Assembly (NCBI GenBank): GCA_023142835.1
Contig: JAGLIS010000002.1
Span: 1-34,805, forward strand
Source of the DNA: Candidatus Pacearchaeota archaeon
GTDB taxonomy: Archaea > Nanobdellota > Nanobdellia > Pacearchaeales > GW2011-AR1
Length of the DNA stretch: 34,805 nucleotides
Direction: 5' to 3'
Below the pieces are notes generated by a model, which saw only the letters and a list, made by a program, of their open reading frames with translations, did no database searches and was not told the DNA's origin. The translations under genes were made by a program, and so were the position numbers. The first letter of the stretch is position 1; each line of letters begins with the position of its first letter. Positions 3,852 to 27,137 of the stretch are shown here, piece after piece.

Positions 3852-4265
3852 ATGCCTTACAATTTTTTAGAACATACTGCAGACGTAAAATTTAGAATTG
3901 AAAGTCCGACTCTAGAAGAAATGTTCAGTTCATCTGCCGACGCCTTAAACGAAACAATCCGTGGAAATATTAAAATTTTAGAACAAAAAGAAAAGAATTT
4001 TGAAATCGAAGGAAAAGACTTAGAAGAACTACTTTATAATTTCTTAGAAGAACTTTTATTTTTATTAGATACTGAAAATTTTTTAATATCAAAAATTAAA
4101 GACATCAAAATTGACCTAGAAAACAAAAAACTAAAATGCGTTGCCACTGGGGACAAAGCAGAAAATTACAAATTTACCAATGATGTAAAAGCAATAACCT
4201 ATCACGAAATGTTCATCAAAGAAAAAAATGGCAAATTCATCTGCGAGGTAACCTTGGATGTATAA
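3852..4265 (+). CDS. Archease (RtcB activator/chaperone)
   Basis: The N-terminus MPYNFLEHTADVKFRIESPTLEEMF is the archease signature (F.EHTAD...). Size is 137 aa. It overlaps the downstream rtcB by 8 nt. Confidence 0.9.
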   Translation: MPYNFLEHTADVKFRIESPTLEEMFSSSADALNETIRGNIKILEQKEKNFEIEGKDLEELLYNFLEELLFLLDTENFLISKIKDIKIDLENKKLKCVATGDKAENYKFTNDVKAITYHEMFIKEKNGKFICEVTLDV

Positions 4266-5676
4266 AAAACAATTAAAAAAAATATCTGAAACAGAATATG
4301 AACTTCCAAAAACTGGAAAAATGAATGTTCCCGGAAAATTATTTTTATCTGAGAAACTCTTAAACGACGTCGAGGAAAACGCCTTAAAACAAATTGCCAA
4401 TGTTGCAATGCTACAGGGAATTCAAAAATACTCTATAGGTCTTTCAGATATGCATCTAGGCTACGGTTTCCCCATCGGTGGCGTCGCTGCATTTGACATA
4501 GAAACAGGAGTTATCAGTCCGGGAGGAGTCGGCTACGACATTAACTGTTCAGTCCGTTTACTAAAAACAAACTTAAAAGAAACAGATTTAAGAGGAAGAG
4601 AAAAAGAAATTACACATTCACTATTCAGAACAATCCCTTCAGGAGTCGGTCGCGGGGGAAAATTAAATCTCAATGAAAACGAACTAAATAATGTCCTTAC
4701 CGACGGAGCACAATGGGCAGTTGAAAAAGGTTATGGCAAAAAAGAAGATTACTTGCATACCGAAGAAAACGGAAAATTAGAAAATGCTGACCCTTCAGCA
4801 GTATCAAAAAGAGCAAAAAGCAGAGGAATGCCCCAATTAGGTTCGCTAGGAGCAGGCAACCATTTTTTAGATATATTAATCGTAGATGAAATTTTTGATA
4901 AAAGTATAGCAAAAGTTTTCGGTTTAGAAAAAGGACAAGTTGTCATTATGATTCACTGTGGTTCTCGAGGACTCGGACACCAAGTAGCATCAGATTATAT
5001 CAAACTAATGGACGATAAATACGGACATCCAGATTTTGATAGGGGATTAGTAAATGCTCCAATAAAATCAGAACTCGGACAAAAATATCTAACCGCCATG
5101 AACTGTGCTGCAAATTTTGCATTCGCAAATAAACAATTAATCACTCACTGGATTCGCGAAGATATGAAACATTATTTCCCAAATTTCAAGACAGAAGTTG
5201 TCTATGATATCTGCCACAACATTGCAAAATTTGAAGAGCACATTATCGACGGAGAAAAGAAAGAAGTTTTAGTTATGAGAAAAGGAGCAACAAGATCTTT
5301 TGGTCCAGGTAGAAAAGAAATTCCAGAAGATTATAGGAAAGTTGGTCAACCAGTTTTAATTCCAGGCTCGATGGGAACCTCAAGTTATGTTTTATGTGGA
5401 ACAAAAAAAGCAGAGGAAATTTCATTTGGTTCTACAGCACACGGGGCGGGAAGGATAAAAAGCCGAACTCAGGCACACAAAGATATGACTTTTGAAGAAG
5501 CAAAAAAAGACATGGAAAAACGAGGAATTTTTGTTGAATTCGGCAACCAAAAAGGTTTGATTGAAGAATCCCCATTTTCCTATAAAAATATTGAAGAAGT
5601 TGCTAGAGTTTCTCACGAGGCTGGTATTGGGAATAAAGTTGCGAAGCTGAAACCGTTGTTAGTTATCATAGGTTAG
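4258..5676 (+). CDS. rtcB: RNA-splicing ligase RtcB (3'-phosphate/5'-hydroxyl RNA ligase)
   Basis: 472 aa with GYDINCSVRLL, GAGNHFL, HCGSRGLGHQV and GSMGTSSY..STAHGAGR motifs. Normal length, so no intein. Confidence 0.95.
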   Translation: MYKKQLKKISETEYELPKTGKMNVPGKLFLSEKLLNDVEENALKQIANVAMLQGIQKYSIGLSDMHLGYGFPIGGVAAFDIETGVISPGGVGYDINCSVRLLKTNLKETDLRGREKEITHSLFRTIPSGVGRGGKLNLNENELNNVLTDGAQWAVEKGYGKKEDYLHTEENGKLENADPSAVSKRAKSRGMPQLGSLGAGNHFLDILIVDEIFDKSIAKVFGLEKGQVVIMIHCGSRGLGHQVASDYIKLMDDKYGHPDFDRGLVNAPIKSELGQKYLTAMNCAANFAFANKQLITHWIREDMKHYFPNFKTEVVYDICHNIAKFEEHIIDGEKKEVLVMRKGATRSFGPGRKEIPEDYRKVGQPVLIPGSMGTSSYVLCGTKKAEEISFGSTAHGAGRIKSRTQAHKDMTFEEAKKDMEKRGIFVEFGNQKGLIEESPFSYKNIEEVARVSHEAGIGNKVAKLKPLLVIIG

Positions 5677-5706: not shown

Positions 5707-6741
5707 ATGGTGATTTCAAATTTGCTTGGGTTTTTTCTTCCGCTAATTTTTTTAGTAGGAATTGTCACGAGTTACACTGACATTCGACAAGGGAAAATTT
5801 TCAATAAACATCTTTTATGGGCATTGGTAATTATGATAATTATTTATCTTGTTATTTTGATTGGACCATGGTTACTTGAGGATAATTATTTCTTTAATCT
5901 TGGATTAAATTTTTTGATATCCTTTGTAATCGGATTTTTGTTTTGGCATTTAGGACTCTGGAGTGCAGCAGATTCTAAACTATTTGCATTATATTCTCTT
6001 TTAATTCCCCTAACAGTTTATTCCAAAACCTATTATTCTTTTTTTCCTTCATTAACCCTATTGATTAATTCCTTTGTCCCATTTTTCGTAGGATTTTCTT
6101 TAAAATCTTTCTTTACAGATTCTATTGATCAAAGGAAAAAATTCTTTTCAAATATCAGTATAAAGGATATTATTACTCTCATTATGCTAATTTTTGTTAT
6201 GATGTGGATTCCTTCGTTATTTTTTAAGGTTTTAAATATTCAATTTCTTTTTATAATTAGTTTAGCAATAATGTTTGGATTGGCATTTATTTTAAAAAAA
6301 CTTTTTGATAAAAATCTTTTTTTTGTTATGATTGGTTTGACCATCGTTAGAATTATTTTTGATTATGCTTATGTTAGTACTTTTGAATTTTTAAAACAGT
6401 TCTTTTATCTTTCGATTTTGCTTATTATAATTTTTATGTTGATTAATTCTAGTTCGCAGTTTTTTGTGAAGAAAATTTGGATTAACAATATTAGACCTGG
6501 GATGATTCTTGCTGGAAAAGTGTATGATGGGGAAAAAGAACTCAAGTTGGAACACCCGGCGGAAGGTCTTACAATAAAGGATGTGAAAAAAATCATGAGA
6601 CTATATAAAAATAAAAAGATTGGAGACGAAGTGAATATTTATCAGACGATTCCATTTGCTCCATTTATATTTGCTGGGGCTTTACTTACAATTGTTCTTC
6701 GTGGAGATTTTCTAATTTCTTTGATAAAACTTCTTACATGA
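5707..6741 (+). CDS. A24-family aspartic prepilin/preflagellin peptidase (PibD/FlaK/EppA-like) with a soluble insert before the last TM helix
   Basis: Polytopic membrane ORF. First Asp context is SYTDIRQGKI; the second lies in WSAADSKLFA (G-x-G-D-like). The terminal IPFAPFIFAGALL resembles the PFGP..L end of PilD/FlaK-family enzymes. Residues about 255-315 are hydrophilic. Confidence 0.7.
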   Translation: MVISNLLGFFLPLIFLVGIVTSYTDIRQGKIFNKHLLWALVIMIIIYLVILIGPWLLEDNYFFNLGLNFLISFVIGFLFWHLGLWSAADSKLFALYSLLIPLTVYSKTYYSFFPSLTLLINSFVPFFVGFSLKSFFTDSIDQRKKFFSNISIKDIITLIMLIFVMMWIPSLFFKVLNIQFLFIISLAIMFGLAFILKKLFDKNLFFVMIGLTIVRIIFDYAYVSTFEFLKQFFYLSILLIIIFMLINSSSQFFVKKIWINNIRPGMILAGKVYDGEKELKLEHPAEGLTIKDVKKIMRLYKNKKIGDEVNIYQTIPFAPFIFAGALLTIVLRGDFLISLIKLLT

Positions 6742-6756
6742 TTTAGTGTAATAATT

Positions 6757-6764
6757 CTTATATA
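6757..6764 (+). promoter_or_regulatory. TATA-like box (CTTATATA) about 25 nt upstream of the 6786 ATG; implies a leaderless transcript for the Hxs-like operon
   Basis: Position and sequence only. The same spacing recurs at many genes in this window. Confidence 0.35.
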
Positions 6765-6785
6765 GGGTATGAACTTTGTTTTTAT

Positions 6786-7193
6786 ATGGAGATTCATCAT
6801 GAAGATAACTTTGTATTAATTGAAATAAATCCAGAGATTTATCTATTGGAAGTCGTTTATTCTGCAGCTTATGTTTTTTTAGATAGAGCCTATATTCGGC
6901 TTGATGGCGACGCTGACAAAAAGATAATTGTTGAGTTGAGACCTAAAGAAGATTATTCCTTGGAACAACTAAAGAATGAATTCAATAATGAGTTGCTTAA
7001 TTATGCGTTCCATAAATCTCAGATTGAAAATTCAGGAGACATACGGAATATTTTGATGCAACGGGCTCTTTTTATTCCAGAGATAAATAAAATTGAAAAA
7101 GACGATTTATTGAATGAAGAATTTTCTGGAGATCCTAATGAAATTTTTTCACTTGAAGATTCTTCAGAAAACGAAGTTCCGTGGGAGGAATGA
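6786..7193 (+). CDS. HxsD-like protein (His-Xaa-Ser system accessory protein) with an acidic C-terminal tail
   Basis: 135 aa. ...LKNEFNNELLNYAFHKSQ... resembles the LLNDYxLRE signature that I recall naming the HxsD family. The context also supports it (rSAM/SPASM plus a His-x-Ser repeat peptide downstream). The stop overlaps the next start (ATGATG at 7190-7195). Confidence 0.5.
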   Translation: MEIHHEDNFVLIEINPEIYLLEVVYSAAYVFLDRAYIRLDGDADKKIIVELRPKEDYSLEQLKNEFNNELLNYAFHKSQIENSGDIRNILMQRALFIPEINKIEKDDLLNEEFSGDPNEIFSLEDSSENEVPWEE

Positions 7194-7411
7194 TGGAAAG
7201 TTTTGAGACCTTTTTAAATTTGAAATTCTACAACATTGATTCTATAGAAGAATCGATTGAAGATTTTGGAGAAGTTTGTGACATTTTTTTTGATAAGTGT
7301 TCGGGGGAGATAAAAGTTATATCTTTCGACGCTGAGACGAGTTCCGAGGAAATTTTTCGAGAATTTTGCAATTATGTTTTGGGGGTTATGAAAAATAATC
7401 AAGTAATATGA
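7190..7411 (+). CDS. Small acidic protein (73 aa), apparent short paralogue of the preceding HxsD-like protein
   Basis: The ORF track starts at GTG 7181. I prefer ATG 7190 (or 7193), which is preceded by GGGAGG (7183-7188) and overlaps the upstream TGA. ...SSEEIFREFCNYVLGV... parallels SLEQLKNEFNNELLNYAF in the upstream protein. It overlaps the rSAM start (ATGA at 7408-7411). Confidence 0.45.
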   Translation: MMESFETFLNLKFYNIDSIEESIEDFGEVCDIFFDKCSGEIKVISFDAETSSEEIFREFCNYVLGVMKNNQVI

Positions 7412-8790
7412 AAGAATATCGATTGAATTTTTTAAGGAAGAAAAAGATTGGCGAGAAATATTTAGTGACTACAGATCATGGAAGTTGGATATATTTGGGA
7501 ACAGAAGAGTTAGATAAATTAATATCTAAAGATTTGGATGAATCACTTTATGCTCGCTGTGAGGAGAAAGGAATAATTATTACAGAAGATAATAAGTCAG
7601 ATATTATAAAAAATATTCGTGAGAAATATGCGTTTCTTTCTAGCGGGACTTCACTTCATATTATTGTAGCGACGCTGAGATGTAATCTTCATTGTGTTTA
7701 TTGTCACGCTTCTTCTTGTCCGCAATCTTTTGAAGGTTATGATATGGATGAAAAAACGGCGAAGAAGACAGTTGATTTTATTTTTCAATCTCCTGCAAAA
7801 AATATTACAATTGAAATTCAGGGAGGAGAACCTTTGTTAAATTATGATGTTATAGAATATATTGTTAAGTATTCTAAGAAGTTGAATGAAGTTCATAAGA
7901 AAAATTTGAGATTGACGGTTGTCACTAATTTTGGAATGATGGATGGTGAGAAATTAGATTTTTTTGAAAATGAAGATGTTGATATTTGCACTTCACTTGA
8001 TGGTCCAAAAGAATTGCATGAGAAGAATCGGAATTTTGGAAGTCATGGACCTGTAGTTAAGTGGCTTGAAGAAATTAGGAAACGGGAGAAAAATGGAATC
8101 TTACATAAAAATGCGGTTTTGACTGTGACTCATGAAAGTTTAAAATATCCTCGAGAGATTGTTGATGAATATGTTAAAAATGGGGTGAAGGATATTCATT
8201 TGAGATTCTTGAATAATCTTGGAAACGCTAAACAAGATTGGGAAAAAATTTGTTATAGTTCTGAAGAATTTATAGACTATTGGAAGAAATCCTTGGAATA
8301 TATTTTTGAATTAGATAAATCGGGAATTTTTCTGAGAGAGCGTGGAGCTACAATAATCATGAAGAAAATTCTTGGTGGAGAGCCTAATTATCTTGAGCTA
8401 AGAAGTCCTTGTGGTGCTGCGATCGGACAGTTGTTATATAATTATGATGGTGCGATCTATACTTGTGACGAGGCACGAATGGTAGGAGAAGATATTTTTA
8501 AATTAGGAAATGTTAAGGAAAATAATTATTCTGAAATTATTTCTTCGAATCAAACTTGCGGGATCGTGGCTGCTTCCATAAATGATACACAAATTTGTGA
8601 TTCGTGTGTTTACAAACCTTACTGCGGAATCTGTCCTGTTTGTAATTATGCAGAGCAAGGAAGTATCATCGCGAAAATCCCGCAAACAATGAGATGTCAA
8701 ATTTACAAAGCACAGTTTGATTATCTTTTTGATAAAGTCTTAAATGATTCAATAGCAAAAGAAGTTCTTTTAACTTGGGTTAAAAATTAG
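7408..8790 (+). CDS. Radical SAM/SPASM peptide maturase (HxsB/HxsC-like)
   Basis: CNLHCVYCHA (C-x3-C-x2-C), IQGGEPLLNYD, and C-terminal SPASM cysteines (..SPCGAA..YTCDE..CDSCVYKPYCGICPVC..MRCQ). A roughly 90-aa N-terminal extension precedes the cluster motif and could be a substrate-recognition domain. Confidence 0.85.
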   Translation: MKEYRLNFLRKKKIGEKYLVTTDHGSWIYLGTEELDKLISKDLDESLYARCEEKGIIITEDNKSDIIKNIREKYAFLSSGTSLHIIVATLRCNLHCVYCHASSCPQSFEGYDMDEKTAKKTVDFIFQSPAKNITIEIQGGEPLLNYDVIEYIVKYSKKLNEVHKKNLRLTVVTNFGMMDGEKLDFFENEDVDICTSLDGPKELHEKNRNFGSHGPVVKWLEEIRKREKNGILHKNAVLTVTHESLKYPREIVDEYVKNGVKDIHLRFLNNLGNAKQDWEKICYSSEEFIDYWKKSLEYIFELDKSGIFLRERGATIIMKKILGGEPNYLELRSPCGAAIGQLLYNYDGAIYTCDEARMVGEDIFKLGNVKENNYSEIISSNQTCGIVAASINDTQICDSCVYKPYCGICPVCNYAEQGSIIAKIPQTMRCQIYKAQFDYLFDKVLNDSIAKEVLLTWVKN

Positions 8791-8793
8791 GAA

Positions 8794-8802
8794 TATTTAA
8801 AA
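8794..8802 (+). promoter_or_regulatory. TATA-like box (TATTTAAAA) about 27 nt upstream of ATG 8825; possible dedicated promoter for the precursor peptide gene
   Basis: Lies in the 34-nt gap after the rSAM stop. The spacing matches the leaderless pattern elsewhere in the window. Confidence 0.35.
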
Positions 8803-8824
8803 AAGATAATTGCCTGTTGTTACA

Positions 8825-9073
8825 ATGAAAGAAGGGGTAAAATCAAAGATTCCAAAATTAAAGAAGAAGATTAGCGCTTTTTTGGTTGGTGAGGAAGGGA
8901 AAATATCAAAAAATTCTTTATTAAAAATAGGTGGTGTTTTGACAGGATTGTCCTCTGCAACGATTGTTGCAGGAGTAAATAATTTGCATTTGAGCTATAC
9001 AGATTCGACTGCAACGGCTAAGCATGGAAATCATTCGAGTCACTCACAACACGGTAGCCACTCGAGTTATTAA
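8825..9073 (+). CDS. His-Xaa-Ser repeat peptide (HxsA-like putative precursor), 82 aa
   Basis: C-terminus ...TATAKHGNHSSHSQHGSHSSY has five His at exact 3-residue spacing, then Tyr and the stop. The N-terminus is Lys-rich, followed by the hydrophobic segment LLKIGGVLTGLSSATIVAGV. The ORF track begins at TTG 8810; ATG 8825 is preferred because of the TATA spacing. Only 2 nt separate its stop from the next ATG. Confidence 0.65.
   Translation: MKEGVKSKIPKLKKKISAFLVGEEGKISKNSLLKIGGVLTGLSSATIVAGVNNLHLSYTDSTATAKHGNHSSHSQHGSHSSY
9023..9070 (+). repeat. Coding His-x-x triplet repeat (HGN HSS HSQ HGS HSS Y)
   Basis: cat gga aat cat tcg agt cac tca caa cac ggt agc cac tcg agt tat. CAYTCGAGT occurs twice. 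Confidence 0.9.
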
Positions 9074-9075
9074 CT

Positions 9076-10992
9076 ATGGAATCAATTCAAACACCCCAAG
9101 CTATTCCGCCACAAAGTAACAAGTGGAAGATTTTCATCATTCCGATTATATTAATTATCGTTTTCCTTGCCATTGGAAATCTCTATTTATTTTATTTTTC
9201 AGGTGATGATTTTTTGCAGGATTATGACGAAGTGATAGATTATGAAACTCTCGTGGACGAAGTTAATTTTTCTCATGAGTTAACTCAAGATTATACTAGA
9301 AATCCTATTTCTGTTGTTGATTTAGATATTAGCAGAGAAGGAAATTTGTTTGTTACGGATTCTTCAGGACATAGAATAATGGTTTTTGATTCTGATTTAA
9401 ATAATATTAGGAATATTGGTGAGAAATATAGTGAAGATAGTGGTTCAATTATTAGTGGTAGAGTTACTAACGTTGAGGAAATGATGCAATTCCCTGGTTC
9501 TTCTGCATTAGCTGGAAATTATATTTATGCGATAGATAGAATGAATAGAAGGATTAATACTTATACACTAAATGGAGATTTTGTCGAATGGAGAAATTTT
9601 CCTGAAGAAGTTATTTCTCAAACAGATGTTGGAGAAGCTCCCCATATTGATGGACAGAGAGTTAGTTTGATTGTTTTAAATAATGGTGATTTGCTTCTTC
9701 ATTCGTTGACAAGTAACAATGTTTATATTCTAGATTTTGAAACTTTAGCCATTAAGAAAACTTTAACTTTTGAGGGTATGAAGGCTTTTGGCGTAGGTAA
9801 ATCTTTGAAAGGATTTTATGTAATTGATTCCCTAAATAAGAAAGTGTATGAATATAGTGAAGATCTTTCTTTGATTGGGACTATTGACAGTGAGCTCATT
9901 AATCCAGTCGATGTTTGTGTTTTGTCAGATAAGTTTGTGATTACCGATGAGGGTGATGATTCCTTAAAATTATTTAATTTAGATTTTAGTTTTATAGAAA
10001 AGAAAGAGCTTACAGGAATTTCTCCAGATTTTATTGCTTGTGAAGAAGACGTAGTTTATATTTTTGATGATAGTGAAGGTAGAGTTGTTAAGATTAGTTT
10101 AGATAACCTTGAAGTTAAAAAGGAAGTTTCTGTTATTTCTCAATTGAATATTTTGAAGGGTGCTCCTATCTTTATTGCATCAAGTCAGATGAATGGTGAT
10201 GTTGCGATTGAGGATTCTCAAAATAATTTAATTCTTATTTTGGATGAAGATTTAAATTATAAAAATATTATTGGAATTGGTTTTGGAGATTCCCCTAATA
10301 AATTTAAATTCCCTACTGGACTTTCCTATGATAATGATGGAAACCTTTATGTTTTAGATAGGTGGAATACGAAGATTAAGATTTATGATTCCGATTATAA
10401 TTATATTAGATCAATTGATGATATAGGTTACTCTGGTAATGATATGATTGTGTTAGATAACGGGAATATTATGTATTTGGATGTTGATACTTATACTGTG
10501 AAATTTATTGACAGCGATGGAAATTTGGTTGGGGAATTAACTGAAGAGAAAGGGATGATTGCCCCTCATGGGCTTGGTATTTACAAGAGTAATTATATTG
10601 TTAGTGACGAAGTTCCTAGAGAATCTGATGGACATTACGATGTTTACTTCAAAGAGTATGACAAGAATTATAATTTTGTGAAATCTCATGTGATGCCAAA
10701 TCCAACTGTTTTTGAGACTTCTGAAACTTTGTCGATTTATGGGGATATGGTTATTATGCCAGATAATGATGAGAATAATTTGTTCTTTTATGATTTGATT
10801 AATGATGAGATTATTGAGAATATTACAGTTTCGCACGCTAGTTTTTTTGGGGCTATAGAGGTAGAGTTGCCAGCAGGTAAGGATTATGTTTTAGTCACTA
10901 ATCAGATGGATGGTAAATTATTTAAGATTGATATTAATTCTCGGAAGATAGTTGACGAAAAGAGGATTTCACTTTATTATAAAGAATATTAA
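9076..10992 (+). CDS. Membrane-anchored NHL-repeat beta-propeller protein, 638 aa
   Basis: N-terminal TM helix WKIFIIPIILIIVFLAIGNLYLFYF. It has repeated NHL-type blades, e.g. GNLFVTDSSGHRIMVFDSDLNNIRNIG and PTGLSYDNDGNLYVLDRWNTKIKIYDSDYNYIRSI. Confidence 0.75.
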   Translation: MESIQTPQAIPPQSNKWKIFIIPIILIIVFLAIGNLYLFYFSGDDFLQDYDEVIDYETLVDEVNFSHELTQDYTRNPISVVDLDISREGNLFVTDSSGHRIMVFDSDLNNIRNIGEKYSEDSGSIISGRVTNVEEMMQFPGSSALAGNYIYAIDRMNRRINTYTLNGDFVEWRNFPEEVISQTDVGEAPHIDGQRVSLIVLNNGDLLLHSLTSNNVYILDFETLAIKKTLTFEGMKAFGVGKSLKGFYVIDSLNKKVYEYSEDLSLIGTIDSELINPVDVCVLSDKFVITDEGDDSLKLFNLDFSFIEKKELTGISPDFIACEEDVVYIFDDSEGRVVKISLDNLEVKKEVSVISQLNILKGAPIFIASSQMNGDVAIEDSQNNLILILDEDLNYKNIIGIGFGDSPNKFKFPTGLSYDNDGNLYVLDRWNTKIKIYDSDYNYIRSIDDIGYSGNDMIVLDNGNIMYLDVDTYTVKFIDSDGNLVGELTEEKGMIAPHGLGIYKSNYIVSDEVPRESDGHYDVYFKEYDKNYNFVKSHVMPNPTVFETSETLSIYGDMVIMPDNDENNLFFYDLINDEIIENITVSHASFFGAIEVELPAGKDYVLVTNQMDGKLFKIDINSRKIVDEKRISLYYKEY

Positions 10993-11771
10993 AGATTATT
11001 TTTTATGTTAGGGAATATAACAATTCTATTGAATTTGTTTTTTAATTCTTCAGGTATTATCATTTCTGTTTTTATTAGTTCAGCATTTCCGATTATGAAA
11101 ACTGGACGATCAAAGTATTTTGTTTCCTTCGTAATTATTTGATTTAGACATTCTTTTTTGCAAGGTTCTATTTTATAATTGTATTCGGAAGTATTGCACT
11201 TAGGATATATACATCTCCTTGTTACTGATATTACTGAGTTCCCTAGATAGAGAGTTATGTTGCTGTTTTCAGGGAGGTCTATTCCTTGTGGTGGGACATC
11301 TGTTTCGAATCTTTTTATGTTGAGGTCTTTTAAAAAATCAAGAAGTTCCGGATTCGATAATGAGTTATCTTTAAAGTTATCCGGAGATTCCTTAAGACAT
11401 CCAGTCATTATTTCTGGACCCTTCTTCATTCTTATTAAAACTCTTCCATAATTTATTTTTACTTCGGGGAAAGCCTCTAGAATTTCTAAGAGTCCTAAAT
11501 CATTAATCGTTACTTCGAATTTTTTATTGATTTCTGAAATGTCTTTTATTAAATGTTTTAAATTATTGATACCCAAGTTAGTTAGTAAAGGAGTTAGGAG
11601 AACAAATGTCTTATTTTTTTTAATGCAGAATTCAAAGATTTCTTTTGTCTCGGAAAATGTTGGAATTTTTCTTTCACAAAACTCATTTCCAAAATATATT
11701 AAATTGTATTTATCTAAATACTTTAGATTTTGTAATTCTTCTAAAGAGCTTATTTTTATTCCGAATTCCAT
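10989..11771 (-). CDS. U32-family Fe-S protein, UbiV-like (260 aa)
   Basis: The N-terminus ...LIYFGNEFCERKIP parallels UbiV ...IYLGEAVCSKRR. The later segment RRCIYPKCNTSEYNYKIEPCKKEC (C-x4-C-x11-C-x3-C) gives a 4-Cys set like the UbiV 4Fe-4S ligands. ATG 11771 is chosen over the track's TTG 11783, giving a TAATG junction with the upstream gene. Confidence 0.6.
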   Translation of the reverse strand: MEFGIKISSLEELQNLKYLDKYNLIYFGNEFCERKIPTFSETKEIFEFCIKKNKTFVLLTPLLTNLGINNLKHLIKDISEINKKFEVTINDLGLLEILEAFPEVKINYGRVLIRMKKGPEIMTGCLKESPDNFKDNSLSNPELLDFLKDLNIKRFETDVPPQGIDLPENSNITLYLGNSVISVTRRCIYPKCNTSEYNYKIEPCKKECLNQIITKETKYFDRPVFIIGNAELIKTEMIIPEELKNKFNRIVIFPNIKNNL

Positions 11772-12715
11772 TAATAATAACAATTGTTCTTACAATCAAA
11801 TTTGTAATATCGACTGAAAAGTTCCTTGCATTTAGTTTTGTATTCTTCCTTATCTAGATTCATTAGGCTAAGAGTTTTTTTTATTAACTTGGCATCGTTG
11901 ATTTTCCTTATATGACTATTATTTCTTCCAACAATTTTTAGATTTTTTATTCCAATTTTTTCTAGTTCTTTAATAAAACAGATTCCACAGAATGGATTAA
12001 ATTTTTTTAGAATTGTTAAAGTATTCTCTTGAATTATCTTTTCATCTTTTTTCGCTTCCTCATTTATGAAATAAATTTTTTGTTTGAAAGGAATATTACA
12101 AGTTGTTGTAAAAACTTTATGTTCTGGAATGTGACATCTTGAGCAAAATCCGTCTAGGTTTCTACAGAATTGATTGAGTATCATTACTTCGAATTCTATT
12201 TCTGGATTATTTAGGGTAATTGATTTTAACTCTTCAATAGATAAATGTCTTGGGAGAATAATTTTTTTTATCCCGAGATTTTTGTAGAAATTTACCGCAT
12301 TTGAATTTAGACAGACGTTGATACAACTTAAAATAATTTTATTTTTCGGTGCATTCTCTTTTAAAAATTTTATTATTGATAATTCCGAAACTATAAAATT
12401 GTCTACGTAGTCTTTAAATATCATAACTTGTTCTTTGGCTCTTGCTAATTGTCTTGAATTGTAAAATGACTTATTTAATGTAAGAGAAAGTTCTGCGGGT
12501 TTTTTTGCCAAATTATTTATTCTATTTATTTCTTTTATTTGTTCTAAGTTCTCAAAGTTTGCTCCTCTTTCAAATCGTTCATTAACAGAATCCCACTTAT
12601 TATTTTCATTTTCACCTTCAGTTAAATTATTTACACCTAGATAAATTTCTTCAATTCCTAATTTATTATATTCCGCTATATCTTCTATCAAACTCGCGGG
12701 CGCTACTATTTTCAT
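11771..12715 (-). CDS. U32-family Fe-S protein, UbiU-like (314 aa)
   Basis: The N-terminus MKIVAPASLIEDIAEYNKLGIEEIYLG resembles the U32 start (ELLAPAG...GADAVY.G). EVMILNQFCRNLDGFCSRC keeps the C-x4-G-x-C core of the U32 signature as I recall it. Further Cys occur in TTTCNIP and FCGIC. It joins the upstream rSAM gene by an ATGA overlap. Confidence 0.7.
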   Translation of the reverse strand: MKIVAPASLIEDIAEYNKLGIEEIYLGVNNLTEGENENNKWDSVNERFERGANFENLEQIKEINRINNLAKKPAELSLTLNKSFYNSRQLARAKEQVMIFKDYVDNFIVSELSIIKFLKENAPKNKIILSCINVCLNSNAVNFYKNLGIKKIILPRHLSIEELKSITLNNPEIEFEVMILNQFCRNLDGFCSRCHIPEHKVFTTTCNIPFKQKIYFINEEAKKDEKIIQENTLTILKKFNPFCGICFIKELEKIGIKNLKIVGRNNSHIRKINDAKLIKKTLSLMNLDKEEYKTKCKELFSRYYKFDCKNNCYY

Positions 12716-14895
12716 TTTTGTTTATAGTTAAAATTATTTATCATCAGTATTTGAGATATTAAATCTACATAATTTAGACCTTCTTTCGTTATTTCTATTT
12801 TGTTATTTTCAATAATTATTATATTTTTGTTTTGCAAATAATTTAGGCTATCCGAAAAACGGAGCTTATATTTTTCTTCGATTTCAAAATTTAATAATCT
12901 TGATTTTAAAGATATTTTATGAAGTTCATCTTGTTCACCTTGTAGTTCGAATTTTTTGTAGTTGTCTTTTGTCATGTTTGCAAAATATGTTTTGCCTACA
13001 AATGAGAATGTGTTAATACCAATCCCTAAAATGTTTCCTTGATTTAGAAAATTTATTTGATATTCAAATTTTGGTTTTCCTATTTTATGGAAATCTTCTG
13101 CTGTATATTGTCGGTATCCGTTGCTATCTAAAATTAGCCTTCCCTTTTTATTTAGCCAATCAAGTTTTTTTGAGTATTCAATAAAAAATAATTCATCACT
13201 TTCAAGAATTCTTTTGCTGTTGTGCAGTGGCTGGTATGTTACATTGTCAGGGTTTAATGAAAGCATGGTTTCCATTTCGGATTCGTATGAGTCCATATCA
13301 TCCAGATAGACACCATAAATTATGTCTATACTTTTTGTGAAAGTATAATTTTTTAATGAGTTAAAAAAGGAAGTCATTTCTTCTATTGTCGAGGGTCTGC
13401 CAAACTCTTGGAGAATTTTATCGTTGAAACATTGGACTCCAATGCTTAATCTTGTAATGTAGTTTTGTAAGTAATCAAAAAATTTTTTATCAAAATTTGA
13501 TGGGAAAGTTTCCATTGTTATTTCTTTGATGTTCTCTTTTGGAAGATACGAAAATAGTTTATCGAATATTTTTTGGAAATTTTCTTTCCCTATTGTTGTT
13601 GGCGTTCCACCTCCGATGTAAATGTATCTGATGTTATTCGTAATTAGGACTTCCTTAAATTTTTCAATTTCCTTAAGCATAAAATCAATGTAACTCTTTA
13701 TATGTTGATTTGGATATTTTTGAATCCCGCAGAACTTGCATCGCGAATTACAGAATGGGAAATGGAGATAGAGCCCAAATTCTTTTTCAACTGGAGAATT
13801 TTTTATTTTTTCTATTAATTCTTCGAAAGAACTTGGAGTTTTCCATTGGTCAAGTGTTGGGTATTGCATAAAAAAATCTGAATGTCTAAAATAGATAGGG
13901 ATGTAATCTGCCTGGTTTTTTGTTTCTGGAAGCATGTAAGTTAAATTTTTTTGGAGATTGGAAAAGTATTTATCCTTCAGAGATTCTCCTCGGAATTTTG
14001 TTAGAGGGTCTTTAGTAATTTCGTCTTTCACCTTTATCCCTCCAAGACACCTTTCTTTTATTTTACAACTTTGACATATATCATCCGATAATGGTTCTGA
14101 AGCATTTTCTTTCGCCTTGGAAATTATTTCTTTGAATTCAAGAGGGGAAGTTCCTAAGATATTTCCTAAGACTACTGAAGAATAACTGTTTAATTTTATG
14201 TCGCCGTTTTCGTTTATGTAAATGAAGTTATTGCCATCGTCGTTTTGTCCACCATCGCAGTATTCCAAAGCTTTTCTTGAGACAAGACAAAGTGGAAATG
14301 CGTTCGCAATTTTTATTGGATTTCTAATTTTGTTCTCTTTAGAATTCCATATTACTATTTTTTCAGATAGTTTTAGAAGATCTAAAAGATAATCTTTCTC
14401 TTCGCTATTTATGTCCCTTAAAAAGAAAAAATCTTCTAAAGGAATTTCCCTTATGTCTTCAAATATTTTTTCTAATGGAAGATTTTTTTGGAAGACCATA
14501 CATACCATAAATTTGATTTTAGGATTTTCATTAATTCGTCTTGTTAGTGATTCCTTATATTCCAATATTTGGTCTGCGTTTTGAAAAGAGAGGAGACAGT
14601 AATCAATAAATTGAGATATTTCGTCGAATCTTTTTATTCGTTGGATTGAAATATTTGCTATGACTTTTAAGTTTGCAATTTTTATTTTTCTTAAGAATTC
14701 TAAAATGTCTGGATGTTCGAAGATATCTCCACCAGTTAGTCTTAATGTATCAATATCATTTTCTTTTGCTATAGCAATTATATTATCTAAAGATTTTTCT
14801 GAAAGAAATGTCGGAGCGAGTTTGCTTTTGTAACAGTAAGAACAGCCAATGCTACAGACATTTGTGATACTGACTTGGAGCTCTTTTAGTTGCAT
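12712..14895 (-). CDS. Fused double radical-SAM protein: N-terminal rSAM with a SPASM/twitch-like auxiliary motif plus a C-terminal HemN/HemW-like (class C) rSAM, 727 aa
   Basis: Module 1 has NVCSIGCSYCY (residues 13-22), RLTGGDIF, ..EYCDGG.. and CQSCKIKERCLGG (C-x2-C-x5-C-x-GG). Module 2, from about residue 370, has LYLHFPFCNSRCKFCGI and YIGGGTPT, typical of HemN-like enzymes. Confidence 0.85.
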   Translation of the reverse strand: MQLKELQVSITNVCSIGCSYCYKSKLAPTFLSEKSLDNIIAIAKENDIDTLRLTGGDIFEHPDILEFLRKIKIANLKVIANISIQRIKRFDEISQFIDYCLLSFQNADQILEYKESLTRRINENPKIKFMVCMVFQKNLPLEKIFEDIREIPLEDFFFLRDINSEEKDYLLDLLKLSEKIVIWNSKENKIRNPIKIANAFPLCLVSRKALEYCDGGQNDDGNNFIYINENGDIKLNSYSSVVLGNILGTSPLEFKEIISKAKENASEPLSDDICQSCKIKERCLGGIKVKDEITKDPLTKFRGESLKDKYFSNLQKNLTYMLPETKNQADYIPIYFRHSDFFMQYPTLDQWKTPSSFEELIEKIKNSPVEKEFGLYLHFPFCNSRCKFCGIQKYPNQHIKSYIDFMLKEIEKFKEVLITNNIRYIYIGGGTPTTIGKENFQKIFDKLFSYLPKENIKEITMETFPSNFDKKFFDYLQNYITRLSIGVQCFNDKILQEFGRPSTIEEMTSFFNSLKNYTFTKSIDIIYGVYLDDMDSYESEMETMLSLNPDNVTYQPLHNSKRILESDELFFIEYSKKLDWLNKKGRLILDSNGYRQYTAEDFHKIGKPKFEYQINFLNQGNILGIGINTFSFVGKTYFANMTKDNYKKFELQGEQDELHKISLKSRLLNFEIEEKYKLRFSDSLNYLQNKNIIIIENNKIEITKEGLNYVDLISQILMINNFNYKQK

Positions 14896-14993: not shown

Positions 14994-17729
14994 ATGTTAT
15001 TTAGAAGAGGCAATATAGGGAAAGGTCTTTTTTTCTTTTTAATAATTATATTTTTGGCAGTTGGAGTTACGGCAGTGACAATTAATGTTTGGACTTATGT
15101 TGAGAGAGGCACTAAGAATCCTGAAGCTCCTATAGAAAGACAAGAATGGGTAACTGATGACTATGCTCTTATAAATGAATTTGAAGATTGTGATTATTCC
15201 GAAGGAGAGTATGCTGTAGGATTTAAATTAGTTAGAAAGGATGGAGCAGAGAGTGTAAATGCTCAGATAATTTGTGAAAACCAAGGAACCAATATTACTT
15301 TTACCCCTAACAACGCTTTTTCTAATGCAGTTAATAGGACATGTACCTCAGGTCCAGATGTTATGCAGAATATTGCCGTGGCTAGTTTTGCAAATAATCT
15401 TTCAGGAGATGGATATAGTTGTACTGGAAGTACTGGATGTAGTGGAATGACAAATTGTGGATATGAAGCAGGTTTTCCGAAGGTTTGTACAAGTTTTGCA
15501 GATAGTACTACCTGTGAGGATACTGATGGTGATTGTCAATGGCGGTCTGCGGCAACGGGTTATTGTGGTGGTCTTGCTTATTGTAACGGTGCTTACGATA
15601 ATGAAGGAGATTGTAACGGAGATTCAAATTGTACGTGGGTAGATGCTATTCCTTCAGGATGTGAAGCAGATGATGAAATGACTTATGATCCTAACTGTCC
15701 TTCAAAAAATTCGGAAGGTAGTTGTTTAAGTTATCAAGGATGTTCGTGGGGTGTTACTAATTGTAATTCTTATGATAAAAATAAAGGAACTTGCGATTCT
15801 AAAGATGGGTGTAGTTGGGACGGGTATATAAATTGTACTACTTACGACAAGACTGACTGTTTAACTCATAGTGGTGATTTGGGGAGTTGTTCTTGGATTC
15901 CGATGGGGGCGACAGATTCAGAATTTGGGCTAGGACAGATATGTCCAGCTAGTGATCCAATTATGGTAGGGGTTGCAGGTTATAATGGTGAAGGAACTGA
16001 ATATTGTAGAGGAGAAGAAATTTCTGCAGGAGTGACTTACTCTAGTTTATACAATGAACAAGTTGCAGGGATTCTTCCGAAGTGTGCACGAGCAGATAAT
16101 CCTAATTGTAATTATAGATTTGCAGGGGAAGGTTGTTTCTGGTATTTTGCGGGTGCAGATGGGGGTTGTCCAGATAATCATTATATCTCCGGTGTTAGAG
16201 GTTTTGTCGGAGATGATAGTATTGTCGTTGGAAGAGATATTTATATTCAGTCTTATTGTTGTTCTATAGGAGCAATTGATCACTCTTTAGAAGTTCCTGG
16301 AGGAGGAGATGAAGATTGCGATGGTTTAATCAATGAAGGTTATTTCGCTCCAGATTCTATAAGTGCTCATCTTGAAGATAATATTTGTGTTAATATTCCT
16401 TGTTCTATTCCAGGAATTGTTAAATCTAATTCTATTTATTGCCAATCCGAAGGAGCTTATTATTTTGATGGTAATTCTTCAGGAGGGGTAACCGGGACAG
16501 TCTATCCAGATTTTCCTAGATTTTTATTTACTGTTGATTATGATTTAGATAAAGATTCTTGTATCTGTAAGTTCGGTGAAGGTAATTGGTCTGATGATAT
16601 TGATGGGTGGGCGCCTACTTTGACAAGCGGTCCAGGAACTTGTTGTGAGTCTGGTACGAATACTGCTGATGAAAAAGAGTTTTCTATTACTGGTAATTGG
16701 GATGGTTCCATCTCATGTTGTAATAATCGTGTAGATGTAAGTGGAGATAGGACTGTTTCCATTGGAGGACGTTGTCTTCAGACAAAAGCTTATTGGACAG
16801 ATATGCAAGGTAACGCGTTAGGGTCTACAGATTTAGGGGATAGCGTTCAGATAAGAGTAGATAATGTAGAGCTTGATGTAGGAACTGAAGTCGTCTTTGA
16901 GATTTGGGAGGATGATGTAGAATGTATTTTTGGTTTGCCATTTGGGTGTGGAGATGATATGATTCGGGCTGCTATTACAGGTACCGTTGATAATAATCAT
17001 AATTTAATTGCGGTTTGGACAAATGATGCGGATGATATGGATTTGACAAATGATTATGGAGAATTTTATTTTAAAGTTAAGTATGATGATATTGGTGATT
17101 TGGTTACTGATGAGGAATATAAAGAAAGTAGTAATCAATTAGAAGTTAATCAAGATTATAACAATGCCCCAATATCGGTTAACATACTCTCACCAGCATG
17201 CGGAGATTATTTTAATGCAAGTTCAGACACAATTGATATCGAGATTAATGCTCAAGACGAAGACGATATCATCGAAGGACATCTAAGTATCAACGACTTA
17301 GAGATTGGAACTTTTAAAAATGGAAATACAATAATAGGCAATATTTTCTCTAAAGGTGGTAATTATAAAATTGTCGCCGAGGCTGTTAATAGTCGAGGAC
17401 AAAATAAAAGAGCAATTTCAAATATAATGATAATTGACACAACGACAGACGGAGAATACGTTGCAGCATGCATCATCAAACCTGAAGACTACAGCGACAT
17501 CCCATTAAGTTCTGTAGAATTTGACGCTTCAACAAGTAAAGGTATTCAATACGATTTTACCACAGGAACTACAACAGAACTTAGTTTAAGCAAATTAAAT
17601 TTTGATTGGTATTTCAGCGACAGAAGCGATCGTAATATGGATGGAAATAATGAAATGTCATACAAGTTTTGGAAGAACTTTGGGAATGTAGGGAGTAATT
17701 GGGCAACATTAAAAGTATCTATTATTTAA
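14994..17729 (+). CDS. Large Cys-rich secreted/surface protein (911 aa), putative adhesin, with an N-terminal signal or prepilin-like anchor
   Basis: N-terminus MLFRRGNIGKGLFFFLIIIFLAVGVTAV. It carries five C-x5-6-C-x-W repeats (residues about 165-301). A DEDCDGLINEG motif at about 16308-16343 resembles the D-x-DCDG-x-x-DEG metal-binding-type motif of many surface proteins. C-terminal Ig/PKD-like segments are present (..VEFDASTSKG..LNFDWYFSD..ATLKVSI). Confidence 0.7.
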   Translation: MLFRRGNIGKGLFFFLIIIFLAVGVTAVTINVWTYVERGTKNPEAPIERQEWVTDDYALINEFEDCDYSEGEYAVGFKLVRKDGAESVNAQIICENQGTNITFTPNNAFSNAVNRTCTSGPDVMQNIAVASFANNLSGDGYSCTGSTGCSGMTNCGYEAGFPKVCTSFADSTTCEDTDGDCQWRSAATGYCGGLAYCNGAYDNEGDCNGDSNCTWVDAIPSGCEADDEMTYDPNCPSKNSEGSCLSYQGCSWGVTNCNSYDKNKGTCDSKDGCSWDGYINCTTYDKTDCLTHSGDLGSCSWIPMGATDSEFGLGQICPASDPIMVGVAGYNGEGTEYCRGEEISAGVTYSSLYNEQVAGILPKCARADNPNCNYRFAGEGCFWYFAGADGGCPDNHYISGVRGFVGDDSIVVGRDIYIQSYCCSIGAIDHSLEVPGGGDEDCDGLINEGYFAPDSISAHLEDNICVNIPCSIPGIVKSNSIYCQSEGAYYFDGNSSGGVTGTVYPDFPRFLFTVDYDLDKDSCICKFGEGNWSDDIDGWAPTLTSGPGTCCESGTNTADEKEFSITGNWDGSISCCNNRVDVSGDRTVSIGGRCLQTKAYWTDMQGNALGSTDLGDSVQIRVDNVELDVGTEVVFEIWEDDVECIFGLPFGCGDDMIRAAITGTVDNNHNLIAVWTNDADDMDLTNDYGEFYFKVKYDDIGDLVTDEEYKESSNQLEVNQDYNNAPISVNILSPACGDYFNASSDTIDIEINAQDEDDIIEGHLSINDLEIGTFKNGNTIIGNIFSKGGNYKIVAEAVNSRGQNKRAISNIMIIDTTTDGEYVAACIIKPEDYSDIPLSSVEFDASTSKGIQYDFTTGTTTELSLSKLNFDWYFSDRSDRNMDGNNEMSYKFWKNFGNVGSNWATLKVSII
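15486..15896 (+). repeat. Five tandem protein-level Cys/Trp repeats: CTSFADSTTCEDTDGDCQW / CNGAYDNEGDCNGDSNCTW / CPSKNSEGSCLSYQGCSW / CNSYDKNKGTCDSKDGCSW / CTTYDKTDCLTHSGDLGSCSW
   Basis: Read directly from the translation. Consensus is C-x3-[YF/x]D-x3-G-x-C-x5-6-C-x-W. Confidence 0.8.
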
Positions 17730-17777: not shown

Positions 17778-18239
17778 ATGAAAAAAAGAGGACTATCACC
17801 TATAATTGCGAGTGTGTTTATGATTTTACTAGTACTAGTTTTATCAGCTTTAATATTCTTATGGGCACGAGGTTTCATCAGTGAACAAATCGAAAAATTT
17901 GGACAACCTATCAACAGCCTATGTAATCGAGTTGATTTTGAAGTTCAACTAGTCTCTGGAGACGTTAGCGAACACGCATTAGAAATCGTTAATCGAGGAG
18001 ATATAAATATTTTCCACTTAGACATTAAAATGATTGAAAAAGGTAATTCCGAAGTAAGTAGATTTCAATTCAAGATTGACGCAGGACAATCCATAAAAGG
18101 AGATTTAAATTTAAGGATGGAAAATGGAATTCTCCCAGATAAGATTGAAATTTATCCTGCACTTTTAGGAAGTGTAAAAGGGAAACATTCAAATAAGGTT
18201 TTCACTTGCAAAGACACAAGTAAGACTATTCAAATGTAA
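17778..18239 (+). CDS. Archaeal type IV pilin-like protein (class III signal peptide, Pilin_N type), 153 aa
   Basis: MKKRG|LSPIIASVFMILLVLVLSALIFLW matches the archaeal pilin N-terminal consensus ([KR]G|xSPvIa..l...it). Confidence 0.75.
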   Translation: MKKRGLSPIIASVFMILLVLVLSALIFLWARGFISEQIEKFGQPINSLCNRVDFEVQLVSGDVSEHALEIVNRGDINIFHLDIKMIEKGNSEVSRFQFKIDAGQSIKGDLNLRMENGILPDKIEIYPALLGSVKGKHSNKVFTCKDTSKTIQM

Positions 18240-18289
18240 TCAAATTGATTACTAACAATAAACATTATTGAAAGGAGGTTGAAAAATAT

Positions 18290-18796: not shown

Positions 18797-18810
18797 TTTA
18801 ATTTATCTTT

Positions 18811-18839
18811 CGGCTCTACGGAGCCGTTTAATTTTTTTC
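18811..18839 (+). terminator. Stem-loop CGGCTC-TACG-GAGCCG followed by a T-rich tract (TTTAATTTTTTT) after the candidate major pilin gene
   Basis: Perfect 6-bp GC-rich stem at 18811-18826, then an oligo-T run. This is the only such GC-rich hairpin I noticed in the pilus locus. Confidence 0.5.
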
Positions 18840-18889
18840 AATTTTTTATCAAGAGGTAAATATATAAAGAAGTTTTTTATTTAATTACT

Positions 18890-21133: not shown

Positions 21134-21165
21134 GATTATAAATAAAAAGCTATTTTACAAAAATT

Positions 21166-27103: not shown

Positions 27104-27137
27104 AATGGAATGGTATATAATCACCTAATTCAAAAAA

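Follow-up and report, generated by a model that had tools for sequence, protein, structure and literature searches.

A His-Xaa-Ser radical SAM locus that lacks HxsC and is linked to an A24-like peptidase in a Pacearchaeota genome

Introduction

His-Xaa-Ser (Hxs) peptide-maturation systems were reportedly defined, in their canonical form, by Haft and Basu through comparative genomics. Here we describe an Hxs-type radical S-adenosylmethionine (rSAM) locus at positions 5707-9073 of a 34,805-nucleotide stretch of DNA from a Candidatus Pacearchaeota archaeon (GenBank assembly GCA_023142835.1, contig JAGLIS010000002.1, positions 1 to 34,805, forward strand), the whole of which we refer to as the window. 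We put at roughly 60% the probability that this locus is a member of a widespread and experimentally unstudied branch of Hxs systems, whose core consists of an A24-type peptidase, HxsD, an HxsD-like protein, HxsB and a short precursor peptide, and whose role would, by analogy, be an antiviral one exerted at the cell envelope.

The HxsD-HxsB-HxsC-HxsA system of Escherichia coli acts as a broad defence against phages by stopping their genomes from entering (Li et al., Nat Commun 2026, PMC13128918). There, HxsA undergoes N-terminal cleavage and periplasmic export and acquires a +8 Da modification that maps to its last HxS repeat, SHRSS; neither rSAM enzyme is dispensable, nor is HxsD, which is bound by HxsC (PMC13128918). 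A survey based on HxsA placed 99.7% of systems in Pseudomonadota (PMC13128918). These results overtake an initial annotation of the window, made from its sequence alone, which had held that neither the chemistry nor the biological role of Hxs systems had been established.

Loci of the canonical type are also annotated on plasmids of Aeromonas, Adhaeribacter, Leptospira and Nostoc, in which hxsD, hxsB and hxsC accompany HxsA, HxsA2 or a peptidoglycan-binding protein and hxsC directly follows hxsB in every case. The Aeromonas HxsA, of 192 aa, combines a Sec signal with the repeats and with a peptidoglycan-binding domain. NCBIfam further holds models for the variants HxsA3, HxsA4, HxsD-like and HxsC4, and many HxsB and HxsD homologues, those of DPANN archaea included, already bear these names at NCBI or JGI, which undercuts the earlier suggestion that the locus might be a new variant. 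Literature searches returned no paper on Hxs in archaea and none describing the HxsA3, HxsA4, HxsD-like or HxsC4 variants; the system is partly catalogued in curated hidden Markov model libraries and not described in the literature searched.

Results

An Hxs cassette and its conservation

The genes of the cassette, together with the gene that follows it, are arranged in the window as follows.

5707..6741, + strand: U, an A24-family (GxGD-type, prepilin/preflagellin-like) polytopic membrane aspartyl peptidase (family motifs, neighbourhood)
6786..7193, + strand: HxsD, 135 aa (TIGR03976, PF27806)
7190..7411, + strand: HxsD-like protein, acidic, 73 aa from ATG (NF038315)
7408..8790, + strand: HxsB radical SAM/SPASM peptide maturase, 460 aa (TIGR03978)
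8825..9073, + strand: HxsA3/HxsA4-type precursor peptide, 82 aa from ATG (full-length alignments to NF038309 and NF038313)
9076..10992, + strand: membrane-anchored NHL-repeat protein, 638 aa (Pfam NHL, transmembrane (TM) segment)

The last five of these had been read by the initial annotation as a tightly packed, co-directional Hxs-type operon, and this description proved accurate: all five open reading frames (ORFs) were recovered, with ATGA overlaps read at 7190-7193 and 7408-7411, a 34-nt gap between hxsB and the precursor gene, and a 2-nt gap between the precursor gene and the NHL gene. An alternative TTG start at 8810 would lengthen the precursor to 87 aa.

HxsD, the HxsD-like protein and HxsB all exceed their NCBIfam cut-offs, in agreement with the proposal of an Hxs-type rSAM system in an archaeon, here one without HxsC. 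The 460-aa enzyme scores 471.7 bits against TIGR03978 (cut-off 370) over its full length (residues 8-458), HxsD scores 55 bits against TIGR03976 (cut-off 50), and the 73-aa protein scores 51.5 bits against NF038315, the HxsD_rel model (cut-off 41). The sequence features that had been attributed to these proteins are likewise present: HxsB carries CNLHCVYC at residue 92, GGEPLL and seven conserved C-terminal cysteines, with matches to Pfam Radical_SAM and SPASM; HxsD has ELLNYAFHK at the position where its family has the LLNDYxLRE motif; and the HxsD-like protein is acidic, with an isoelectric point of 4.05.

To place the locus among its relatives, we collected 80 loci from GTDB species representatives, called ORFs in all of them and searched these iteratively with the window proteins. 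The loci belong to Woesearchaeota, Nanoarchaeota, Aenigmatarchaeota, Iainarchaeota, groups of the candidate phyla radiation (CPR), Elusimicrobia, Myxococcota, Omnitrophota and others. HxsD is present in 71 of them, the HxsD-like gene in 58, where it lies directly between hxsD and hxsB, and a His-x-Ser peptide adjoins hxsB in 53. The string of HxsD, HxsD-like protein, HxsB and peptide thus recurs across 80 species-level genomes and is a conserved core. HxsB itself has thousands of relatives, with DPANN archaea and Patescibacteria supplying the closest (50-84% identity); its identity to the canonical HxsB of Aeromonas is 37%. Two further genes, an A24-like peptidase gene adjoining the cassette and an HxsC-like rSAM gene (~300 aa), are distributed unevenly over the 80 loci.

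Archaea, 30 loci: A24-like gene in 24, HxsC-like gene in 6
CPR, 17 loci: A24-like gene in 2, HxsC-like gene in 11
Other bacteria, 33 loci: A24-like gene in 6, HxsC-like gene in 12, plus 5 fused forms

HxsD consists of a folded domain (residues 1-95) followed by a disordered acidic tail that closes in a conserved P-W, and the newer Pfam family PF27806 is recorded for it and for the homologues listed. An AlphaFold2 (AF2) model, with a predicted local distance difference test (pLDDT) score above 94 for residues 1-80, shows a small alpha/beta module with a long helix ahead of the disordered tail. Foldseek returned only weak matches (E ~0.03) to Pcc1/Rpb11-type dimerisation modules, which suggest, and do not prove, that the predicted fold is a dimerisation module. 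HxsD also matches the HxsD-like model NF038315 weakly (26.4 bits), so the two small proteins are remotely related. BLASTP comparisons of HxsD with the HxsD-like protein and with Aeromonas HxsD gave no significant pairwise similarity, and both relationships are visible to profiles alone. The HxsD-like protein is probably a partner of HxsD.

A linked A24-like peptidase

The initial annotation called the operon minimal, a description that does not survive inclusion of the gene directly upstream of hxsD (5707-6741), which it had passed over and which belongs to the conserved unit in 24 of the 30 archaeal loci. The 32 peptidase-positive loci among the 80 span archaea, CPR, Spirochaetes, Elusimicrobia, Omnitrophota and Sulfurovum. 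The association also holds in the reverse direction: all of four sampled homologues on long contigs (24-34% identity) lie beside Hxs-type genes, three of them directly beside HxsD and HxsB-like rSAM genes and the fourth beside a string of rSAM genes.

In alignments of 30 and of 45 homologues, Asp25 (within T-S-Y-x-D-I-K-x-G-K-I-R-N-K) and Asp89 (within W-x-A-G-D-A-K-L-F) are invariant, the window protein having the variant AADSKLF in place of AGDAKLF at the second site. We take these to be the two catalytic motifs of A24 prepilin/preflagellin peptidases. Within the family, 37 of 45 members match Pfam Peptidase_A24 (E<=0.01, best 1e-9) and 29 of 45 match Arc_PepC, the archaeal A24 C-terminal domain. 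There is no NCBIfam model for this protein. Its AF2 model is that of an all-helical membrane protein (pLDDT 88.8).

A polytopic membrane topology, two Asp motifs and the archaeal A24 C-terminal domain are features that the protein shares with PibD, FlaK and CpaA/TadV. By contrast with these enzymes, it belongs to a divergent family, itself falls below the Pfam cut-off, was matched to FlaK by neither a structure search nor a profile search, and is linked to an rSAM cassette instead of pilus assembly genes. Its presumed substrate shows a comparable mixture: the basic leader, small residue and hydrophobic stretch resemble those of type IV prepilins, Flp pilins and archaellins, whereas the leader, at ~36 aa, is endowed with a conserved motif of its own and the junction is K-x-G instead of [KR]-G. 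From its motifs and its linkage, we propose the A24-like protein as the putative leader peptidase of the precursor.

HxsB and the absence of HxsC

When every ORF of at least 90 aa in the 34.8-kb window was scanned against NCBIfam, no HxsC or HxsC4 was found, the best match being a trivial rSAM cross-match of 18.9 bits. Because only 6 of the 30 archaeal loci have an HxsC-like gene, the single-rSAM arrangement can be regarded as the normal archaeal state, and the absence of HxsC tracks archaeal origin. A strict either-or relationship between the A24 peptidase and the HxsC-like gene was considered and rejected, since an HxsC-like gene accompanies the peptidase gene in 12 of the 32 loci that have the latter. 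Where ~300-aa HxsC-like rSAMs occur in related loci, their best match is HxsC4 or HxsC, below cut-off (121-153 bits for HxsC4, NF038332, against 500).

Several of the related loci are rich in rSAM genes. Strings of three to six paralogous HxsC4-like ~300-aa rSAM genes occur in CPR and other bacterial loci (L036, L027, L039, L048 and L055), and in the CPR locus L036 a single HxsB gene is also surrounded by four HemN-like rSAM genes, an rSAM density that is unusual for such small genomes. Three small-genome metagenome-assembled genomes (MAGs) carry two separate HxsB loci each (pairs L005/L017, L014/L031 and L004/L050), L076 has two back-to-back HxsB genes, and L004 and L080 each have two tandem precursor genes.

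The nearest solved structures to HxsB are those of CteB and the anaerobic sulfatase-maturating enzyme (anSME), and its N-terminal extension of ~85 aa may be a peptide-recognition domain. For the chemistry of HxsB, the triceptide synthases offer the nearest precedent. These rSAM/SPASM enzymes link the C2 of histidine to the C-beta of residue i+2 on HAA, HNR and HTK motifs (PMC11499958). The synthases HaaB, HtkB and YhhB act on repeated aromatic-X-X triplets, a pattern that His-x-Ser fits, and the H-x-S triplets of our precursor, with their period of 3, are consistent with such a substrate. Against the models of cyclophane synthases, however, HxsB falls far under the cut-offs (YhhB, 70.5 against 445; GrrM/OscB, 67 against 310; AmcB, 60.8 against 425), and the Hxs modification measured in E. 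coli is +8 Da and not the -2 Da of triceptide synthases. Judged by these scores, HxsB lies outside the characterised cyclophane synthase families, and any likeness to triceptide synthases would be one of mechanism only.

A family of short His-x-Ser precursors

The 82-aa precursor is as short as had been claimed. It is composed of a basic leader with F-L-x-G-E-E-G-K-I-S-K (residues 1-36), a moderately hydrophobic segment (residues 37-53; Kyte-Doolittle mean ~1.5) and a His-x-Ser core. Its C-terminus reads HGNHSSHSQHGSHSSY and terminates, in keeping with the earlier description of the tail, in H-G-N-H-S-S-H-S-Q-H-G-S-H-S-S-Y. The peptide aligns over its full length to HxsA3 (NF038309, 33.9 bits, cut-off 65) and HxsA4 (NF038313, 31.8 bits, cut-off 55), while the repeats alone align to canonical HxsA (TIGR03979, 19.6 bits, cut-off 121.65). 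Among homologues from the related loci, 41 of 41 match HxsA3 and 32 of 41 match HxsA4 (best E 1.7e-32).

A search of 1.84 billion protein representatives (E<=1e-3) yielded 216 clusters of precursor relatives, and the leader motif is present in 124 of the best 150; on these grounds the precursor is not a chance ORF. Among the 144 short relatives within the best 150, 85 end in an aromatic residue of one of two kinds, Tyr in 49 and Trp in 36, and the commonest tails are HSSY, HGQW, GGWC and HGSW. In the alignment of the 41 peptides, a basic N-terminus with a near-invariant Pro and K-K precedes F-L-x-x-E-E-G-x-I-x-K; the leader then gives way, through K-x-[G/A/S], to ~17-20 moderately hydrophobic residues, a linker and the H-x-S triplets. 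The small residue (G, A or S) opens the hydrophobic segment, with K usually two positions earlier, and the C-terminal residue is aromatic in 33 of the 41. The junction of the window precursor, K-I-G, resembles the classical [KR]-G class III signals of the pilins encoded in the window and is not identical to them. Even in archaeal members with just one or two triplets, H-x-S-Y is still found at the extreme end. This retention recalls the E. coli system, in which the modification lies on the last repeat; in the family described here, the last repeat is the most conserved part.

Several relatives join the leader or the repeats to other domains. In L022:6850-7422 (+) and in protein P0301, a precursor homologue that has the family's leader and His-x-Ser triplets is fused C-terminally to Peptidase_S74 (Pfam E 3.6e-12), which serves trimeric phage tail fibres and endosialidases as a self-cleaving intramolecular chaperone, and this fusion hints that the repeat region may form a trimeric fibre. 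Precursors of CPR and other bacteria (L032, L044, L045, L054, L073, L077 and others) contain (Gly-Ser-His)n, with Gly at every third position as in collagen; 7 of the 41 peptides cross-match models of streptococcal collagen-like adhesins, and archaeal precursors (H-S-S, H-A-S) have no regular Gly. Four proteins (P0362, P0365, P0405 and P0442) combine the F-L-x-G-E-E-G-K-I-S-K leader and hydrophobic segment with a Hint/intein-like domain (C-C-F-x-x-G-T...) that replaces, or comes after, a short His/Ser region, and the Hxs locus L088 likewise contains a Hint-domain gene (L088:2884-3261). Given these proteins, the leader may be a general sorting signal for several cargoes. Three long homologues of 504-545 aa (L026:3311-4825, L060:4104-5741 and L075:9688-11253) carry the leader, His-x-Ser or Thr/Ser-rich repeats and a common C-terminal domain of ~400 aa without a Pfam match.

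Genes downstream of the cassette

The 638-aa protein encoded after the precursor gene is a TM-anchored NHL protein, as had been described (N-terminal hydrophobic segment with a Kyte-Doolittle mean of 2.75; Pfam NHL repeat, 46 bits). Its proposed membership of the peptide system, by contrast, did not hold up. Neither phmmer nor jackhmmer found an NHL homologue in the 80 GTDB loci, and homologues after the peptide gene are confined to close relatives (L081, L084 and L085) with HxsB identities of 66-84%, in which the whole gene order is shared from RtcB to the double rSAM gene described below. The NHL protein is probably a lineage-specific neighbour and not a component of the system.

Convergent to these genes lies a cluster of three genes (10989-14895).

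10989..11783, - strand: protein F, 264 aa, a remote U32-like paralogue of G (hhalign)
11771..12715, - strand: protein G, U32-family, similar to UbiU and TrhP (Pfam Peptidase_U32)
12712..14895, - strand: protein H, 727 aa, two radical-SAM domains (two CxxxCxxC motifs)

G scores 102.7 bits against Pfam Peptidase_U32 (cut-off 22.4), and 63 and 72 bits against the UbiU and TrhP models, both far under their cut-offs. F gave no direct family match in NCBIfam or Pfam and an empty PDB search, and hhalign related it to the U32 family alignment (probability 92.7%, E 4e-7). Because F is a remote homologue of G, the pair recalls UbiU/UbiV; these proteins and TrhP are U32-family O2-independent hydroxylases. 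The likeness consists in an adjacent pair of U32-like paralogues with conserved Cys, and its bounds are set by scores far below the equivalog cut-offs, by the remoteness of F and by linkage to a peptide-maturation cassette in place of quinone or tRNA pathways, so that the function remains an inferred one.

The CxxxCxxC motifs of H are at residues 14 and 382. Its N-terminal half is of SPASM type, with generic rSAM and SPASM matches only, and its C-terminal half is HemN/STM4012-like (157 bits against STM4012). The earlier statement that the operon has one rSAM is therefore correct for the five co-directional genes and not for the neighbourhood. The N-terminal rSAM domain of H was considered as a possible HxsC and rejected, as it matches neither HxsC nor HxsC4.

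F and G recur near Hxs cassettes in L013 (an archaeon), L032 (a Saccharibacteria MAG), L035 (Sulfurovum) and L055 (an unclassified bacterium), and also in L084. Homologues of F, G and H in L032 and L055 share a strand with the Hxs genes and form an unbroken row with them, and in L013 and L035 they are near them. Relatives of the N-terminal domain of H stand directly beside precursor genes in L019, L008 and L020, and relatives of its HemN-like C-terminal domain occur in the CPR Hxs loci L039, L036 and L027. Given this recurrence with Hxs cassettes in distant lineages, F, G and H are probably tailoring components for the Hxs peptide, and these probable extra components in this lineage weaken the description of the locus as minimal still further.

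Other features of the window

The window is AT-rich (GC ~32%) and archaeal, carrying RtcB, archease, archaeal pilins and a FlaI-like ATPase, and the closest named relatives of its proteins are from Woesearchaeota and Nanoarchaeota MAGs. The genes at 17778-23457 resemble an archaeal type IV pilus locus: three of them are pilin-like and encode [KR]-G class III signal peptides, one encodes a FlaI-like ATPase (389 bits, under cut-off), and two adjacent ORFs (21329-22633 and 22633-23457) hold the parts of a split FlaJ/UpsF-like membrane protein. Divergent from the gene for H is an ORF of 911 aa (14994-17729) without an NCBIfam or Pfam match and with a GC content of ~38%, above that of its surroundings; an ORF of >880 aa occupies the equivalent position in the 66%-identity relative L084.

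The other genes seen (3852-5676 and 26303-34682) include an archease-RtcB pair directly upstream of the A24-like gene, as well as genes for TatD, the alpha and beta subunits of a 2-oxoacid:ferredoxin oxidoreductase, a YvcK/CofD-like protein, acetyl-CoA synthetase, a CYTH (class IV adenylate cyclase-like) protein, a PC4-like protein (33131-33559) and a patatin-like phospholipase. Genes for tRNA-Lys and tRNA-Ser are at 1964-2040 and 33677-33757.

A promoter and terminator scan relied on bacterial consensus sequences and was thus uninformative for an AT-rich archaeon, its counts being at the level of shuffled controls. TATA-like strings, TTATATA (6758-6764) and TATTTAAA (8794-8801), lie ~25-28 nt 5' of the start codons of hxsD and the precursor gene. 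Separate promoters with near-leaderless transcripts for the two genes are possible, and such strings are frequent at 32% GC, so we regard this as a lead only.

Discussion

The locus is allied to canonical Hxs systems by homologous HxsD and HxsB proteins that pass the canonical curated models, by the placement of hxsD before hxsB with the substrate gene downstream, and by a substrate that joins tandem His-x-Ser triplets to an N-terminal targeting and processing region. It departs from them in lacking HxsC, which is essential in E. coli and binds HxsD there, in adding an HxsD-like gene and a linked, dedicated A24 peptidase, and in being on no obvious mobile element or defence island. The substrates also differ: the archaeal one has 82 aa, an F-L-x-x-E-E-G-K-I-S-K leader, C-terminal triplets and a terminal Tyr, whereas canonical ones have ~190-215 aa, a Sec signal and a peptidoglycan-binding domain, with no trace of the archaeal leader in Aeromonas HxsA, and the host is a DPANN archaeon that has neither peptidoglycan nor periplasm. 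To the HxsA3, HxsA4 and HxsD-like variants of NCBIfam the locus is closer, in that the 73-aa protein passes the HxsD-like model and the peptide aligns over its full length to both precursor models; it differs from these in that the window peptide is below cut-off and no HxsC4-like gene is present in the window or in 24 of the 30 archaeal loci. The initial annotation was right about the kind of system and is partly supported overall; it erred over what was already known, over the claim of minimality and over the NHL protein.

From the gene identities, linkage and conserved motifs, which are observations, we infer the following sequence of events. The precursor would be made with its basic conserved leader, K-I-P-K-L-K-K-K-I-x-x-F-L-x-G-E-E-G-K-I-S-K, to which the N-terminal extension of HxsB and the small HxsD/HxsD-like adaptor pair would bind in the cytoplasm. 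HxsB would then perform radical chemistry on the C-terminal H-x-S triplets, where the final H-x-S-H-S-S-Tyr-COOH is the most conserved site; the likeliest product would be a cross-link that joins the His ring to residue i+2, of the kind made by triceptide synthases, and the alternative is a +8 Da modification as in E. coli HxsA. In this lineage, the U32-like pair and the double rSAM protein may add modifications. The moderately hydrophobic middle segment would direct the peptide to the membrane, where the dedicated A24 peptidase could cut the leader at the K-x-G junction, on the cytoplasmic face and in the manner of a prepilin peptidase, leaving a small, modified, His-rich peptide to be displayed on the surface or released. 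By analogy with the E. coli system, its role would most likely be that of an envelope-level barrier to viral genome entry, with metal binding as the main alternative.

A number of points weigh against this scheme. The branch is known here from genes alone, and the shift measured in E. coli, +8 Da, differs from the -2 Da expected of a simple cross-link. E. coli needs both HxsB and HxsC, and its HxsD binds HxsC, so that by analogy HxsB may not suffice here, and H, by its matches, is not HxsC-like. On the side of processing, the window peptidase is below the Pfam A24 cut-off (PF01478, 19.5 bits, cut-off 26.5), Foldseek found nothing under E = 2 for its model in the PDB, and a PDB sequence profile search did not return FlaK; the K-x-G junction reads unlike the classical [KR]-G prepilin site, and an A-x-A-like site past the hydrophobic segment in many family members would suit an ordinary signal peptidase. 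The precursor is itself below the HxsA3 and HxsA4 cut-offs, and 27 of the 80 loci show no peptide of this type in their flanks. Finally, the surroundings of the locus are not a defence island, and PADLOC (2023), which is without Hxs models and hence has none that matches, returned only viperin cross-matches.

Other explanations were weighed for individual parts of the locus. If the 460-aa enzyme were anSME or another known SPASM maturase beside an incidental His-Ser peptide, its cross-matches to the models of anSME (99.6 bits), PapB (148.9 bits) and the SCIFF maturase and its structural proximity to anSME and CteB would be accounted for. These scores are far below cut-off (349.45 for anSME), however, in contrast to 471.7 against 370 for HxsB, no sulfatase is encoded in the window and the peptide gene is conserved beside the enzyme gene; the model scores and neighbourhood data led us to reject a sulfatase maturase identity, and we consider this explanation next to impossible. 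Could the A24-like protein instead be a housekeeping prepilin peptidase for the pilus genes at 17778-23457, placed beside hxsD by coincidence? It is without an A24-like companion in the window, three genes for pilins with [KR]-G signals follow 11 kb downstream, and JGI names some homologues FlaK or CpaA. Its recurrence beside Hxs cassettes in 32 of 80 loci across archaea and diverse bacteria, the same outcome for all four independently sampled homologues and the absence of pilus genes from its conserved neighbours make such a coincidence very improbable. A functional role for the NHL propeller, as partner of the modified peptide or as its target, with the tight gene coupling reflecting a surface complex of the two, is similarly hard to sustain. 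The 2-nt spacing of the genes and its repetition in relatives at 66-84% HxsB identity speak for it, but these relatives keep their entire gene order from RtcB onward, so that the conservation reflects recent common ancestry, and none of the 80 other loci, among them archaeal ones with 45-59% HxsB identity, has an NHL homologue; the comparative data thus largely refute it.

The alternative that bears on the role of the whole system is that the product is a secreted small RiPP (a peptide made on the ribosome and modified after translation), a metallophore or antimicrobial instead of an envelope defence factor, whose hydrophobic segment is an ordinary signal cut by signal peptidase and whose His-rich tail chelates Ni, Cu or Zn or acts on competitors. 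A short, His-rich core without the peptidoglycan-binding domain of canonical HxsA would suit such a peptide, as would the only moderate hydrophobicity of the segment and the A-x-A-like motifs that follow it, and copper-binding, cross-linked, His-containing RiPPs are reported (PMC10206099). Yet the genes conserved with the cassette across the 80 loci include none for transport, immunity or metal uptake, its conserved partner is a dedicated A24 peptidase and not a signal peptidase, and the sole experimentally studied Hxs system is defensive (PMC13128918). We therefore judge a secreted metallophore or antimicrobial to be unlikely, while still giving it some weight, and favour the envelope-level antiviral role.

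A more specific form of that role can be put forward, tentatively, with odds well below even. It would make the locus part of a distinct DPANN/CPR branch of Hxs systems in which the modified His-x-Ser peptide is handled like a prepilin, the A24 enzyme removes a RiPP leader at the membrane and the product, displayed or assembled as a surface fibre, guards the envelope of a tiny episymbiont against viral genome entry. The Peptidase_S74 fusions and the collagen-like spacing of the bacterial Gly-Ser-His repeats are a hint of fibrous, trimeric assembly. If this were true, the peptide would be the first RiPP with a prepilin-type GxGD protease as its leader peptidase, and the system would be the first envelope-level antiviral system proposed for DPANN archaea.

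The functional study of the E. coli system left two questions, one about the agents of effector cleavage and export and the other about the nature of the radical chemistry (PMC13128918). The work presented here points to a large and differently built Hxs branch in archaea and candidate-phyla bacteria with very small genomes, some of whose MAGs carry two cassettes. Its substrates are much simpler, with just one H-x-S-Tyr end kept in some members, and this simplicity should bring the chemistry far more readily within reach of mass spectrometry; for the missing processing step, the linked A24 peptidase offers a concrete candidate. Should the antiviral role extend to this branch, an envelope-level defence would be added to organisms that have few known defence systems.

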